DNA of 13,718 nucleotides from positions 1-13,718 of the forward strand of contig SHMW01000098.1 of assembly GCA_008080735.1 (NCBI GenBank), written 5' to 3'. This DNA comes from Promethearchaeota archaeon. GTDB lineage: Archaea > Asgardarchaeota > Lokiarchaeia > Sigyniarchaeales > SOKP01. Below the pieces are notes generated by a model, which did no database searches, was not told the DNA's origin, and saw only the letters and a program-made list of their open reading frames with translations. Below, piece after piece: positions 7,078 to 13,622 of the stretch (positions are counted from its first letter, which is position 1; every line of letters starts with the position of its first letter). Both the position numbers and the translations under genes were made by a program.

Positions 7078-7779
7078 TTATTCATAATCATAAGTAATAT
7101 CTTCTTTATTTAGTGGATGTACTACGACTCTCAAATTTCCAAAGCGAGGGTTAAAATTTTGGATTACATTAGAAATCTTATTAAAAATCTTGAATGGATT
7201 ATCTTCATCATAGCCTTGAATCCAAATAATAACTTCATTACCATCTGGCGAATTTCCTATTTCGATTCCATCAAGTAATAACGATTCAGGCTTAATTAGT
7301 TCCATTTTTTCGCGTTCTTTTTCAAGTATCAGCTCTAACTTCTCTGCTAATTGGTTTAATACATCTTCCATATCATCATCAAATTCCCGCCCCCCCATCA
7401 TCCAAATAATAGTAATTAATCTTCGACTTACTCCAAATTTCTCCTCTTCCGCTTCGAGTTCAGCAGCTGCCTGATCCAACTTCATTTTATATGTTTCGAC
7501 TGCCTCTTCATATTCCGATTCAGATATAGTAATAAATACATTAGAATTGGTATTTGATGAATTTGATAATGAATAATATAGATGGGAGTATTCTTCTACG
7601 CGTCCCTCAGAAATAAGCTTTTCTAAAGCATTGTTGATCTCGGGGAGAGACACTAAGATACGCAATCGAAGATCTATCCATCCAATGAGATTGTTCAAAC
7701 TCATTGATTCGGACAATCCATTCATCTTAAGAGCCCATAAAATTGCTTTTTCTATTTGATTTTTATCTACCATTTCCAT
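7078..7779 (-). CDS. Acidic hypothetical protein (~233 aa); start probably ATG at 7779 rather than 7932
   Basis: The first 51 codons of the 284-aa ORF lie in the AT-rich divergent promoter region and overlap the putative pgk promoter. From MEMVDKNQIEK onward the sequence looks like a globular protein. Confidence 0.7.
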   Translation of the reverse strand: MEMVDKNQIEKAILWALKMNGLSESMSLNNLIGWIDLRLRILVSLPEINNALEKLISEGRVEEYSHLYYSLSNSSNTNSNVFITISESEYEEAVETYKMKLDQAAAELEAEEEKFGVSRRLITIIWMMGGREFDDDMEDVLNQLAEKLELILEKEREKMELIKPESLLLDGIEIGNSPDGNEVIIWIQGYDEDNPFKIFNKISNVIQNFNPRFGNLRVVVHPLNKEDITYDYE

Positions 7780-7917
7780 AGTAAAGTTATTTTTAATGAT
7801 TGATAAGAAATAAGGGGTTTGAAGATATATTAAGATTGCTAAGTGATATAAATCATATCCTACAAAGAATATGATTGTTTTTAATGCAAAATTCATAAAT
7901 TTAGATATCCTACATAA

Positions 7918-7930
7918 GAAAAGTTTATTC
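7918..7930 (+). promoter_or_regulatory. Putative BRE/TATA promoter of pgk
   Basis: GAAAAG-TTTATTC about 50-60 nt upstream of ATG 7980. It has the same GAAAAG-TT architecture as the motif at 1114. Confidence 0.4.
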
Positions 7931-7979
7931 ATATGCTTAAATTATTTTACCATAATAAAATCTAAAGAGTTGAAGTTTA

Positions 7980-9200
7980 ATGTCATTTGACTATGTTTCA
8001 TATAAAGATGTAGATTTAAAAGGGAAAAAAGTCTTAATCCGGCCAGATATTAACTCTAACATTGATGTTGAGAATATGACAATTCGGGAATCACCTAGAA
8101 TTCAAGCGCTCGGAGAAGCTTTAGCAGAATTCAAAGAGTGTGCGGTCGTGGTCATGGCACACCAATCTCGTCCAGGAAGTAAAGATTTCACTTCCTTAAA
8201 ACTCCATGCGGATGAATTAAAGAAATATACAGATATGCCGGTGAAATATGTGGAAGATATTTTTGGTGAGGACGCCGTCCAAGCGATTAAAGAACTTAAG
8301 GTTGGTGAAGTCTTGGTACTGGATAATGTTCGAAAATGGGATAAAGAAACAACTATATTTGATGATTTCTCTGAAGCAGAAAAGACAGAAATGATTCAAA
8401 CCCTAGCCCCTCTATTTGATTATTTCGTTGCTGATGCGTTTGGAGCAGCACATCGAGCACAACCGTCCATAATTGGCTGGCCAACCCTTATAGCAGGACC
8501 AACTGTTGTAAAGGAATTTGAATATATGACCAAACTGTTAGAGGATCCACAAAAACCCGTAGCAATGCTCATTGGTGGAGCGAAGGCGATTGACAAATAT
8601 AAGGCAATGAAATATAATCTTGAAAACGATAGATTAGACTATGGTTTATGTGCTGGATTAACGGCAGTTCTGATTTTGGAAGCGCTAGGAACGGATACTG
8701 GCGAACCAAATAAAAAGGCAGTGGGAAAGGATTTGGAAAAAGCTAAGGATGATATTGTTCAAACATATGAAAAATTCAAAGATCGGATTATCCTTCCAAA
8801 AGACCTCGTTATTGAAGAGGGAGGAAAAAGAGATGATGTACCTATTGACGAAGTTGGTAAATTAAATAAGGTCACCGGTGATATTGGAAAAGAGACAGCC
8901 AAGGATTTTGAAAAAAGGATGATGGAGTGTAAAACCATTGTTGCAAACGGACCTCCAGGGATTTTTGAGAAAGAAGTCTTCAGAAAGGGAACTAAAGAAA
9001 TGGCGGGTGCAATGGCAAAAGCAACTAAGAAAAATGATGCATTGACGGTAATTGGAGGAGGGGAAATGGGAACTGCCGCGGAAATGTTCGGATATGCTGA
9101 TGATGTATCATTCATATCAACTGGTGGAGGGGCTATGTTAGAAATTCTTAGTGGTAAAGATGTCCCATTAGTGAAAGCTCTAAGAGAAAAAAAACCCTAA
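7980..9200 (+). CDS. pgk: Phosphoglycerate kinase (archaeal type)
   Basis: GKKVLIRPDINS, AHQSRPG, DAFGAAHRAQPS, IGGAKAIDK, NGPPGIFE, IGGG and FISTGGGAMLEIL; 406 aa is a typical length. Confidence 0.96.
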   Translation: MSFDYVSYKDVDLKGKKVLIRPDINSNIDVENMTIRESPRIQALGEALAEFKECAVVVMAHQSRPGSKDFTSLKLHADELKKYTDMPVKYVEDIFGEDAVQAIKELKVGEVLVLDNVRKWDKETTIFDDFSEAEKTEMIQTLAPLFDYFVADAFGAAHRAQPSIIGWPTLIAGPTVVKEFEYMTKLLEDPQKPVAMLIGGAKAIDKYKAMKYNLENDRLDYGLCAGLTAVLILEALGTDTGEPNKKAVGKDLEKAKDDIVQTYEKFKDRIILPKDLVIEEGGKRDDVPIDEVGKLNKVTGDIGKETAKDFEKRMMECKTIVANGPPGIFEKEVFRKGTKEMAGAMAKATKKNDALTVIGGGEMGTAAEMFGYADDVSFISTGGGAMLEILSGKDVPLVKALREKKP

Positions 9201-9230: not shown

Positions 9231-9408
9231 TTACTTATAATCGACTCATACTCAAAAAGGAATTTTGAAAATTATAACCATTAGAGTCATGTATAACATT
9301 TTGAGAATCCCTTTCATAAAATAAGGAAGAACGGGATTATATCGGATATTATATTATTTTATCAATTTTTTTCTCTATTAATCTCTTCTATTAAGATCAA
9401 ATACTTGA

Positions 9409-9426
9409 ACAAAATTTATATATATA
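9409..9426 (+). promoter_or_regulatory. Putative BRE/TATA promoter for the 9496/10930 unit
   Basis: ACAAAA-TTTATATATATA is a strong TATA-like element preceded by an A-rich BRE-like tract. Confidence 0.45.
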
Positions 9427-9495
9427 GGAAAGATCAATTTTAATATTAATCGAAAAAAAGCGAGATCCCATCGGAAAATTCGAGATGATTTTTCA

Positions 9496-10908
9496 TTGTC
9501 TCCTAATCTACCTCATAAAATAATAAATTACAAAACTCCTTTGATTGAAACTAATATTCTATTAGTTATATTAAGTTGGAAGAATTGTATCAAATTGCCG
9601 ATTTCGGGTAGTTATCAACATCATTCGATAGAGAACATAAAAACCGACATTGTTATTTTCTTCGGTGGGAAAGAATGTTCTATCTCTACAGTTAACGGAT
9701 ATCTGCATTCTCTATTTGGGTTAGGGTATTATTACACCAAATTTGAAATACAATCTCAAAATTACATAACAGACAATCGTGAATTAACAGGTTTAGTGTT
9801 ATCTGATTTTGTCTATGATCATCTGTCAACTTCAAATAGTGTAGCGTTCCAAGAGGATGCCGATGTAATTTTTACAGACCTAGTTGTGAAAGTTCCTCTT
9901 AATCTTTCTTACAAATCAGACACTAAAAGAACTTTTATAAAGGGAACACTTATGAGAAATCTCTTCATACCCTATAAAGATATTTTTCTTGAAATGATGA
10001 ATCATATTAGAAAACCTGATACCTATCAAATCAAAAAAGATGGACCTATGATTCTTAATGCGGATTGGAATATTTTTAACACAATTTTAATCTCAAAGAG
10101 AATGCAGGAACGTAAAAAAAAGGAATTTATCAATCCGACTGCGGGTATCACTCAAATAGAAGTGGGAGTTGAGGAATATTTACAAAAGATTTTTTCTCCT
10201 TCAGAAATCTTAGAAATAGAGGAAAAGGTTGAAGATTTGAAAAAAATATTCGCTTCTATCGAATTAGATCCAACCTATCTATTCTCACTGATAGAAAATT
10301 CCTCTAAATATTTACCAATACCTCCAATAAACTCTGAAGAGTATCAAAAATCTTCTCCTTATAAAAAGTCAATTCTTATTTCAGCGGGAACTCGGTTAAA
10401 CGAATATAAAGCATGGCCTCTCAAACTAGAAGCTCATACTGAAAAGGGTTCTACTTCAAAAGTTAAAGTAAAATTTGAAGATAAGAATAAATTTAATTTT
10501 CAAATAGAAGAAGATTCAAACCAAAATAGTAATATGGAGAGTTATTCAACACCAAAAAAGGGAGATTTTATCTTAAGGAGTATGAGACCAAATATTGTAA
10601 AAGAGAAAAAGCTTCCCGAATCTTCTATGAATACGATTGATGAGATCTTAGATTATCTTATAAAGGTCATAAATGAGGATTATGATATGCCAACTATAGG
10701 TCGAGCTTTTGAAAATGCTCATCAAAAATTGCGGAAGATTGTTTTATATGTCGATTATATGTGGGAAATGAGCAAGTTAACAAATATTTACAAAAAAAAG
10801 AATCCGAACTTGGGCTTAAGTGAAAAAGAAAAAGAAAACTTGCTCCGTAAGGTATATGATTGGAAATCAAAAACTAAAAATAGTCAAATTAAAGTAGGAC
10901 CAAAATAA
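9496..10908 (+). CDS. Hypothetical soluble multidomain protein (N-terminal alpha/beta domain, low-complexity linker, C-terminal helical domain); true start may be TTG at 9595
   Basis: 470-codon ORF with no recognisable family motif. It has a globular region to ~aa 272, an S/K/E/N-rich linker, and an amphipathic helical region at ~aa 375-460 ending in EKENLLRKVYDWKSK. Confidence 0.8.
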   Translation: MSPNLPHKIINYKTPLIETNILLVILSWKNCIKLPISGSYQHHSIENIKTDIVIFFGGKECSISTVNGYLHSLFGLGYYYTKFEIQSQNYITDNRELTGLVLSDFVYDHLSTSNSVAFQEDADVIFTDLVVKVPLNLSYKSDTKRTFIKGTLMRNLFIPYKDIFLEMMNHIRKPDTYQIKKDGPMILNADWNIFNTILISKRMQERKKKEFINPTAGITQIEVGVEEYLQKIFSPSEILEIEEKVEDLKKIFASIELDPTYLFSLIENSSKYLPIPPINSEEYQKSSPYKKSILISAGTRLNEYKAWPLKLEAHTEKGSTSKVKVKFEDKNKFNFQIEEDSNQNSNMESYSTPKKGDFILRSMRPNIVKEKKLPESSMNTIDEILDYLIKVINEDYDMPTIGRAFENAHQKLRKIVLYVDYMWEMSKLTNIYKKKNPNLGLSEKEKENLLRKVYDWKSKTKNSQIKVGPK

Positions 10909-10929
10909 AAAGAGGAAAGAAAAGATAAT

Positions 10930-11625
10930 ATGGCAAGTATAAAATCTGCGATTAAATATCTCGAGAAAGCATTTCCAGATGTAATGGAAACAGCAGTATT
11001 TAACAAAGAGGGGAATATTTTGTACTCAAGTAATAATTGGAGCATCGAGAATGAGGTTAGGGCTCTTTTATCGGTTTGGTGGAGTGAGAATGCTCAATTT
11101 ATTAATATAAATGGTGTTAGATATTCAATTCTTCAGATGGAACCCGAGCGTTTCGTCGCAACAAATCGGAAAAAACAAGGCCATCTGGTCGGAGCAGCGA
11201 CTCCCAGTATGAATAAATTCCTTATAGCACATATTAGTCCGAAATCAAAAGGGTGGTTTCATGGGGCTTATCCTACTATAGCACGAGCAGCGGCTATGAT
11301 AGAAACGGGGTTGGAAATAAATATAGAAAAGGGAAATAAGCAGAAACTTTCCAGGCAGAAAAAAGATGTAAGAGATAAAATCTTTGAGGAGGATTATTTT
11401 GCTTCATTCATAGAATCCGCAAATAATCCAAGCACCTCTTTAGTCCAACAGAGATCGGAAATAGATCCTAACTTAGAAATTGAAGTTGAAACATTTTTGG
11501 AGTGGATTAAAGATCCCGAAGGTTTAGCTGGTTTCATAAAATATTATCTTAGGGAAAATGATTCTGAGATGATATCTCGTTTATCAAGAATATACCAACA
11601 ATTTTACAAAACATTTTATGGGTAA
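10930..11625 (+). CDS. Asgard-type profilin domain protein with a ~105-aa C-terminal extension
   Basis: aa 1-125 follow the Asgard profilin pattern as I recall it: AVFNKEGNILYSSNNWSI...W...ININGVRYSILQMEPERFVATNRKKQGHLVGA...LIAHISP plus a terminal helix. A basic linker and a helical domain (aa 178-231) follow. Confidence 0.82.
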   Translation: MASIKSAIKYLEKAFPDVMETAVFNKEGNILYSSNNWSIENEVRALLSVWWSENAQFININGVRYSILQMEPERFVATNRKKQGHLVGAATPSMNKFLIAHISPKSKGWFHGAYPTIARAAAMIETGLEINIEKGNKQKLSRQKKDVRDKIFEEDYFASFIESANNPSTSLVQQRSEIDPNLEIEVETFLEWIKDPEGLAGFIKYYLRENDSEMISRLSRIYQQFYKTFYG

Positions 11626-12007: not shown

Positions 12008-12112
12008 GGGCTCGTGATCTAGCGGTATTAGTAATTAGTGTTGCTTCTTGCTGCCTAAGATGCCCGCTTGACGTGCGGGAAATCGAGGGTTCAATTCCCT
12101 CCGAGCCCACCA
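12008..12112 (+). tRNA. tRNA-Val(GAC) with a ~30-nt intron in the D-arm and genomically encoded CCA
   Basis: Acceptor stem GGGCTCG/CGAGCCC followed by ACCA. Anticodon stem CCCGC/GCGGG with loop TTGACGT (GAC at 12070-12072). T-arm GAGGG-TTCAATT-CCCTC. The D-arm ATCT-AGCGGTAT...GAT is interrupted by 30 extra nt. Confidence 0.93.
12029..12058 (+). other. tRNA intron at non-canonical position ~22/23 (relaxed bulge-helix-bulge)
   Basis: Inner helix AGTAA(12030-34)/TTGCT(12048-52), 3-nt bulge ATT(12027-29), central helix GGT/GCC with one C-T mismatch, and second bulge AAG(12057-59). Cutting after the 2nd nt of each bulge gives a normal 75-nt tRNA with ...GGTATGATG... Confidence 0.75.
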
Positions 12113-12767: not shown

Positions 12768-13622
12768 ATGAAAGTTGAGATTCGTTGCCCTATTTGTTCT
12801 ACTACAGAAAACATCGAGATTTCTAAGAATGAATTAGAAAAGATTCAAAGAGGTCTATTAGCGATTAACATTCCAAAGTCTGTTGTATGTGAACACAATT
12901 TTGTGGCATATATTGATAGTAACTTTCATGTAAGGAATTATTGTACTACAGATTTTGAAATTTTAGTCCCTGAAGATCAATCAGAGATTCAAACGCCAGA
13001 CATTCCAATTAATAAAATGGATCCACTCTTATTAAAGATTAATTTACCTCCCTCCATTTTATCATATATTTTAAGAGGTATCTTTTCTAAACATAAAATT
13101 ATTATTATTTCAGATAAAGAATTTCTGATTCCACATTTAACCCATTTTTTTAAATATATAATGGAAAATTCATTTGAAATGGATTTGTCAATTATTTTGG
13201 AACAAGATTATATTAATTCTTCTAAAAATTATGAGGAGGCTCTTATCTTCTACGGAAATAAGATCATCACTAACGAATCTTCTGACAAAATTTTAGGAGA
13301 TATCAGCATTGAAGAGGCTATTGTTGAGAAATTTTTATCTGAAAAAGACTTGCAAACAGGTTTGATCATATTAAAAAATGAGATTAAGAAAGCCCATCAC
13401 ATCTCGGAAATTCTCATTGACATTATTAAAGACTCCGAGACAAAGAAAAAGAAAATGAATCCTGAAGAGGCTATTAGAATGCTCGAGGAAGGGCATAACA
13501 TCAAGATATCCTCCGAATACCTCGAATTCTTATACATCATCATAGAAAATTACTTTGGGATTGAAGTACCAAAGAAAATAAAAAAAGTTTTTCAATTATA
13601 CTTGGGAATTTCCTACTTTTGA
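12768..13622 (+). CDS. Hypothetical protein with an N-terminal Zn-ribbon (CxxC...CxH) and a possible DENN-like core
   Basis: C7-P-I-C10 and C41-E-H43-NFVAYID, a central LLKINLPPSILSYILRGIFSKHKIIIISD segment, and a helical C-terminus. Confidence 0.8.
   Translation: MKVEIRCPICSTTENIEISKNELEKIQRGLLAINIPKSVVCEHNFVAYIDSNFHVRNYCTTDFEILVPEDQSEIQTPDIPINKMDPLLLKINLPPSILSYILRGIFSKHKIIIISDKEFLIPHLTHFFKYIMENSFEMDLSIILEQDYINSSKNYEEALIFYGNKIITNESSDKILGDISIEEAIVEKFLSEKDLQTGLIILKNEIKKAHHISEILIDIIKDSETKKKKMNPEEAIRMLEEGHNIKISSEYLEFLYIIIENYFGIEVPKKIKKVFQLYLGISYF

Follow-up and report, generated by a model that had tools for sequence, protein, structure and literature searches.

Do two neighbouring genes of an Asgard archaeon, one for an extended profilin and one for a protein without matches in Pfam, NCBIfam or the PDB, form a functional unit? 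The closest relatives of eukaryotes known to date are the Asgard archaea, whose actin regulators have so far been treated mainly as stand-alone profilins and gelsolins. Contig SHMW01000098.1 of a Promethearchaeota archaeon (assembly GCA_008080735.1; the whole stretch of 13,718 nt is called the window below, and positions refer to it) encodes both genes next to each other, here termed gene A and gene B. A previous sequence-only reading of the window had proposed that they constitute a dedicated operon. We favour, with a probability of roughly 0.6, the interpretation that A and B1, the paralog class of extended profilins to which gene B belongs, make up a two-gene operon that is conserved in one Lokiarchaeia-type family and act in a shared pathway, because their linkage is conserved, tight and independent of the flanking genes.

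Conservation of the A-B gene pair

The positions of A and B were compared across about 300 genomes of the phylum, and 12 loci were inspected at the level of open reading frames (ORFs). Within the family, 33 of the 42 genomes that encode a short A protein contain it directly upstream of B1 on the same strand; they belong to genera g1, g2, g3 and g5. In the window, both ORFs and their spacing agree with the earlier description of two co-oriented genes 21 nt apart, and the corresponding gaps at six orthologous loci in other genomes are 14, 2, 73, 42, 20 and -4 nt. A genome of the same genus retains the gene order GH20, orf284, pgk, A, B, orf159 and orf284, and in five genomes of other genera the A-B pair persists with none of the other genes of the window nearby. 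At these evolutionary distances the two pairs of proteins share 40-50% identity. Around the long A paralog and the Heimdall-type homologues, gene neighbourhoods are not conserved beyond close relatives, which leaves A-B1 as the one conserved linkage in the set of A relatives that was checked.

The pair has the arrangement of an operon, with both genes on one strand, short or overlapping gaps, no terminator-like T-run between A and B, and adjacency across genera g1, g2, g3 and g5 while the flanks differ. The spacer (AAAGAGGAAAGAAAAGATAAT) is purine-rich and free of T-tracts, as had been noted, and the GAGG located approximately 14 nt before the ATG of B is a likely ribosome-binding site of this gene. 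From this arrangement we infer that A and B1 are co-transcribed. The pair is also set apart from its neighbours to the extent previously estimated (~295 nt upstream and ~380 nt downstream): 295 nt separate A from the stop codon at position 9200 of pgk, which encodes phosphoglycerate kinase (Pfam PGK, 4e-98), and B is followed by 382 nt until a tRNA-like sequence (~12008) and by 512 nt until the next ORF. The claim of a dedicated operon holds in so far as A and B1 stay closely spaced and on one strand in four genera whose flanking genes differ, but 'dedicated' is too strong a term, as the pair is split or incomplete elsewhere.

The extended profilin encoded by gene B

Gene B was described as an extended profilin, and profilin homology, a linker and a conserved C-terminal block were indeed found. 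In a single-sequence search of the PDB, residues 17-120 match the Odin profilin 5zza_P with an E-value of 2.3e-12, followed by 7pbh (2.9e-07), 5zzb (2.3e-05) and 5yed (3.4e-05). A profile of 25 B homologues yields 5zza (2.5e-16), 5yed (1.2e-14), 5zzb (1.2e-13) and 7pbh (3.1e-13). Judged by these alignments, residues 17-126 are a genuine Asgard profilin. The Pfam Profilin model (PF00235) reaches 14.6 bits (E 0.036) on B, below its gathering cut-off of 25 bits, which is a weak criterion for Asgard members because the model was mainly built from eukaryotic profilins. The ESM Atlas model of B is of low confidence, with a predicted template modelling score (pTM) of 0.55.

In total, 51 B homologues of 209-236 aa were identified, and the homologue alignment shows the profilin domain of B1 to be better conserved than its linker. 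Like the Asgard profilins with solved structures (5zza, 5yed/5yee, 5zzb and 7pbh; Akil and Robinson 2018, as cited in PMC10933270), which it resembles over the entire profilin domain, B would most likely bind Lokiactin monomers through its N-terminal domain. In contrast to these single-domain proteins of 121-145 residues, however, B carries an additional variable linker of ~50 residues and a helical module of ~55 residues, and belongs to a paralog class linked to gene A. The source genome also encodes one short profilin and a second long profilin (205 aa, contig C35), which has the same type of tail as B, is flanked by unrelated genes and shows no link to A.

The C-terminal module of B (consensus IDPxLKxEIExFLxWIKxxxGLxGYIxYxLxxND...IS.L..IY) has no sequence matches in Pfam or the PDB. 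It was found in every genome of both families of one order (68/68 and 7/7), but in none of 226 genomes from the other sampled families of the phylum. The module also follows Ras-family GTPase domains (Pfam Ras, 1.8e-35 and 5e-11), is contained in a 729-aa Zn-ribbon-profilin protein, and has homologues in many genomes of the family that are free ORFs of ~54 residues (MSAEERQSVEYFLEWIKN...KIKQVFGF). The tail of B is a portable module and not specific to A, since it is also carried by a profilin paralog not linked to A and by Ras-family GTPases, and exists as free mini-proteins. The tail-bearing GTPases are located on G258:C172 (L058:1114-2535) and G083:C118 (L059:1484-2503), and one of them contains a proline-rich linker before the tail. 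Examples of free tail ORFs are those on G279:C12 (L054:1424-1585), G207:C8 (L055:1247-1408) and G195:C2 (L056); in the source genome, none was detected at an E-value of 0.001.

Gene A encodes a multidomain protein of an undescribed family

Gene A shows no sequence matches to Pfam or NCBIfam, nor to the PDB by single sequence or by profile, and Pfam likewise gave nothing on any of the 41 aligned family members. Together with its three-part AlphaFold model, this confirms the initial description of an undescribed multidomain protein. The gene is present in a single copy, as a search of the source genome with A returned only A. Its TTG start codon at position 9496 aligns with the initiator methionine of the closest homologues (P0005 and P0007), and the coordinates first assigned to gene A are thus correct; the start in database record P0003 lies 15 codons downstream of this TTG.

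The A family comprises more than 372 homologues of 450-480 aa, all of which derive from Asgard metagenome-assembled genomes (MAGs). Two classes are distinguishable, a short one of 455-485 aa and a long one of 600-750 aa, the latter with an additional ERLEK-type charged coiled-coil at both ends and without a profilin. In the long paralogs, for example P0112 and P0115 (G228:C9 and G156:C55), ERLEKERLEK-type repeats span 40-80 N-terminal and about 150 C-terminal residues; these charged repeats are of the single-helix or coiled-coil type, and one record is named 'MAP7 domain-containing' for them. Full-length A is limited to one order, a range identical to that of the B tail, and matches to the A family outside this order comprise the N-terminal domain only. 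Several A orthologues contain in-frame stops, namely five in G276 (C12:13408-14724) and a single TAA each in G141:C139, G104:C5, G222:C39 and G319:C119, which may represent pseudogenes, sequencing errors or misjoined alignments. The B gene downstream of the stop-bearing A is intact in G276, G141, G104 and G222.

The AlphaFold model of the whole protein, with a predicted local distance difference test score (pLDDT) of 79, consists of an N-terminal domain, a linker and a C-terminal four-helix bundle. The proposed succession of a globular domain, a linker and a small helical C-terminal domain is therefore borne out by the model for A, and by the homologue alignment for B. The N-terminal domain, which was modelled separately with a deeper alignment, is a predicted alpha/beta domain of 265 residues. 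In a structure search against 48,161 representative PDB chains, its best hit reached a Z-score of only 2.9, and the best Foldseek E-value was 0.08. These scores are far below what such searches usually return, and the missing match does not prove that the predicted fold is new. A longin-like or other known fold found no support, with no match above Z 2.9. Homologues of this domain occur in proteins of ~345 aa from Heimdall, Hod and Odin MAGs, where it follows a small helix-turn-helix (HTH)-like domain and a charged coiled-coil. The linker has pLDDT values below 50 at model residues 300-337, and invariant or nearly invariant positions in the homologue alignment are W292, P293, F343, R346, K356, L358 and P359. 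A polyproline ligand for profilin was considered and rejected, as the LPIPP stretch of A is not kept in its homologues.

The C-terminal bundle of A superimposes on the C-terminus of yeast Vps28 (2j9u_A) with a Z-score of 10.3 and a root-mean-square deviation of 2.4 A over 88 of 94 residues, and the runner-up scored Z 7.6. A structure search of the ESM Atlas, which is based on a different model, retrieved a cluster of eukaryotic VPS28 proteins over residues 377-466. At the level of the predicted fold, Vps28-C is thus the closest relative of the bundle in two separate structure searches. A is nevertheless not a Vps28, because sequence or profile similarity is absent and a canonical Vps28 is encoded separately in the same genome, on contig C15. 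Specifically, the Pfam model VPS28 (PF03997) gave no matches on A up to an E-value of 10, and hhalign assigned a probability of 0.1% to the comparison of the A family with the 214-aa Vps28 of the source genome. A also lacks the steadiness-box core, its N-terminal domain being the alpha/beta domain of 265 residues without a PDB match.

Relation to other Asgard and eukaryotic systems

The literature searched describes neither the A-B pair nor its two components, the extended profilin and the A family. Vps28-C modules are spread over many Asgard multidomain proteins, are abundant in Lokiarchaeia and have been proposed to dock to the endosomal sorting complex ESCRT-II (Makarova et al. 2024, PMC10936438). 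A resembles these proteins in carrying a Vps28-C-like C-terminal module on a multidomain protein, as seen in Lokiarchaeia, but its N-terminal domain is none of the partner domains reported there (adaptin appendage, longin, tetratricopeptide repeat, Ig-like and HTH/PCI). Profilin is not mentioned in this ESCRT survey. The source genome encodes one example of the Lokiarchaeia Vps28-C multidomain type (C2:49965-50243; L014:1474-3273, minus strand). This protein is at least 599 aa long and contains repeated segments resembling winged helices, and its C-terminal stretch scores above the Pfam cut-off for VPS28 (24.7 bits, model positions 87-182).

Thor 1DGelX and B35_GelX (PMC7444086; bioRxiv 10.1101/2025.11.30.690169) are likewise Asgard actin regulators with a long linker and an uncharacterized extra domain, domain X. 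The GelX protein of the source genome (438 aa; contig C19:36035-36241 region, L008:505-1821, minus strand) contains a gelsolin domain, a long Ser/Lys-rich linker and two copies of a domain of ~75 residues, which identifies domain X of the Loki GelX as a small fold present in duplicate. An identity of the A N-terminal domain with domain X was ruled out for this genome, as the domain of the C19 GelX is different and duplicated, and the search with A found only A itself. A connection of an A-type N-terminal domain with a gelsolin is present in P0241, a Hodarchaeota MAG record of 509 aa in which a gelsolin domain is joined through a Lys/Glu-rich linker and an HTH-like domain to an A-type N-terminal domain. 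Its gelsolin domain matches the Thor gelsolins 7c2h, 7c2f and 7c2g with E-values of 1e-3 to 7e-3.

In eukaryotes, profilin-actin is recruited by scaffolds such as the formin FH1 and Ena/VASP proline-rich regions. These provide a working analogy only, in that a separate protein positions profilin-actin at an assembly site. In contrast to them, A has no conserved polyproline tract, tethering would rely on a folded module of the profilin itself, and homology is absent.

A preprint on Lokiarchaeum ossiferum gives two profilins and does not comment on an extension. Enrichment with Lokiactin was seen there for the 14.5-kDa Pro2, but not for the 22.8-kDa Pro1 (log2 change 0.31, p 0.17). Pro1 would correspond to a long profilin, an assignment made from its size only.

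Proposed function and alternative explanations

Besides the conserved linkage, the gelsolin domain joined to an A-type N-terminal domain in P0241, the profilin homology of B, the Vps28-C-like bundle of A and the common restriction of full-length A and the B tail to one order are in favour of a shared pathway. A would act in an adaptor-like manner, combining an Asgard-wide N-terminal domain with a disordered, motif-bearing linker and a Vps28-C-like bundle, a type of protein-binding module. The flexible linker of B1 carries a small helical module, presumably for docking, which the order also places on Ras-like GTPases and on another profilin. Most likely, A and B1 are made together and serve one pathway, which would position or control profilin-actin at a specific location, possibly one where membranes are remodelled. 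Direct binding of A to B1 is possible, yet we consider it doubtful: the two tails are unrelated, the B tail also occurs on proteins that have no connection with A, and either gene persists without the other in some complete genomes. The earlier suggestion of contact through the C-terminal helical domains is thus not supported.

Several observations weigh against a conserved operon with a shared pathway. The adjacency is missing in the g4 genomes, which encode A but no close B1, and in three g2, two g6 and one g8 genomes. In the sister family, the genes are adjacent in none of seven genomes, and in one complete genome of 4.4 Mb they are ~0.85 Mb apart. Conservation of the gene neighbourhood, named in the earlier reading as a check, accordingly holds for the 33 family genomes mentioned above, but not for the sister family, g6, part of g2 or g4. 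Several complete genomes, such as G207, encode B1 and only a long A, which is located elsewhere. The lack of specificity of the B tail for A likewise detracts from a private partnership of the two proteins, and the two tails are dissimilar (hhalign probability 0.4%), a value by which homology of the C-terminal domains of A and B was ruled out. Furthermore, no A-B fusion was found: the A paralogs of 600-750 aa lack a profilin, and a search for longer relatives of B gave none, the latter being weak evidence. The likeness to Vps28-C is confined to the fold level, and a Z-score of 10 can be attained by helical bundles through a common arrangement; unrelated bundles can score Z below about 13. Finally, the gelsolin fusion P0241 is a single record, and its relatives in the 300 genomes do not have the gelsolin part.

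Because every adjacent case lies within one family, part of the count of 33 in 42 is explained by shared ancestry. Taken further, this leads to the explanation that A and B1 are neighbours by inheritance without functional coupling, having been adjacent since the ancestor of the family and not yet separated in most lineages. In agreement with this, the pair was split or lost one member several times with the other gene retained, and the sister family holds both kinds of genes without any adjacency. However, all other neighbour relations of the window have disappeared outside the genus while A-B was kept at the protein divergence given above, and the tight or overlapping spacing resembles that of translationally coupled genes. 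We therefore regard mere inheritance of gene order as rather unlikely, if still the most serious alternative. Genomes of the family without A mostly lack B1 as well, which is no independent evidence for coupling, since joint absence is expected for neighbours on an unassembled contig.

Alternatively, the pair could function in small-GTPase or trafficking signalling instead of actin regulation, with the profilin fold of B1 serving as a roadblock- or longin-like platform, the tail docking to the same hub as the Ras-like GTPases that bear it, and A acting as an ESCRT-linked adaptor. Profilin, roadblock and longin have a common core fold (PMC10933270), the tail of B occurs on Ras-family GTPases, and the putative long profilin Pro1 of L. 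ossiferum was not the one enriched with Lokiactin. In addition, of the 11 loci of B1 genes without A, 5 have small-GTPase genes close by, all of them in related genomes, but genes of this type are very common in these genomes and their proximity is weak evidence. B1 aligns best, and over the whole domain, with profilins that were crystallized with actin, and we consider a function apart from actin quite unlikely. That A is a profilin-specific chaperone or inhibitor, which binds the profilin domain via its N-terminal domain or linker motifs and not via the tails, would fit the conserved linear motifs in its otherwise disordered linker and the stronger conservation of the B1 profilin domain relative to the B1 linker, but is very improbable given that A lacks a conserved polyproline tract and that B1 occurs without short A in several complete genomes.

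The favoured operon and shared pathway can be extended to a physical A-B1 complex that links profilin-actin to ESCRT-type membrane remodelling, in which the bundle of A would dock to ESCRT-II and the tail of B would be a common address label directing profilins and Ras-like GTPases to a single hub. This extension is improbable in our view; if true, such a complex would be an archaeal forerunner of the eukaryotic coupling of actin, membranes and GTPases in trafficking.

Features of the locus and surrounding DNA

The features of the locus are listed in Table 1. An A/T-rich, TATA-like stretch (TTTATATATATAGG) is a candidate promoter for the A-B pair; promoter and terminator assignments are based on reading the sequence only.

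Table 1. Positions of genes, predicted protein domains and putative regulatory elements of the A-B locus in the window
Feature	Positions	Strand	Description
TATA-like A/T stretch	9405..9435 (core about 9416-9429)	+	Sequence reading; ~70 nt upstream of the A start
Gene A	9496..10908	+	ORF, 470 aa, TTG start; short paralog class, Asgard-specific
A N-terminal domain (about residues 16-293)	9541..10374	+	AF2 model, pLDDT 92.4, pTM 0.90; fold unmatched
A linker	10375..10623	+	Mostly disordered; short conserved motifs W-P, F-E-L-R and K-x-L-P
A C-terminal four-helix bundle	10624..10887	+	Vps28-C-like by predicted fold
A-B spacer	10909..10929	+	21 nt, purine-rich, no T-run, GAGG present
Gene B (B1)	10930..11625	+	ORF, 231 aa, ATG start; extended profilin
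B profilin domain (residues 1-126)	10930..11307	+	Similarity to solved Asgard profilins
B linker	11308..11457	+	Variable in length and sequence; alignment columns about 145-215
B C-terminal helical module (~55 aa)	11458..11622	+	Conserved block in homologue alignment

Downstream of the pair, the tRNA-like sequence at positions 12008-12112 has an acceptor and a T-arm that are visible by eye. It was missed by ARAGORN and by an Rfam scan at gathering thresholds, and a permissive Rfam scan gave a partial tRNA-like match only (tmRNA clan, E 8e-05). These features are consistent with an intron-containing archaeal tRNA. Two ORFs of 284 aa each (positions 12768-13622 and 7078-7932) have no Pfam or NCBIfam matches and are kept beside the A-B pair in the same-genus genome only.

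Implications for Asgard actin regulation

The locus contains a profilin paralog with a putative built-in docking module that is also found on Ras-like GTPases, and a conserved partner gene that combines a domain of unmatched fold and a Vps28-like, presumably protein-binding bundle in one product. Should the two products not interact, they still contain two undescribed domain families restricted to Asgard lineages. If they do interact, the pair would offer a concrete, testable entry point to the question of how actin dynamics became coupled to membrane or signalling machinery before eukaryotes.

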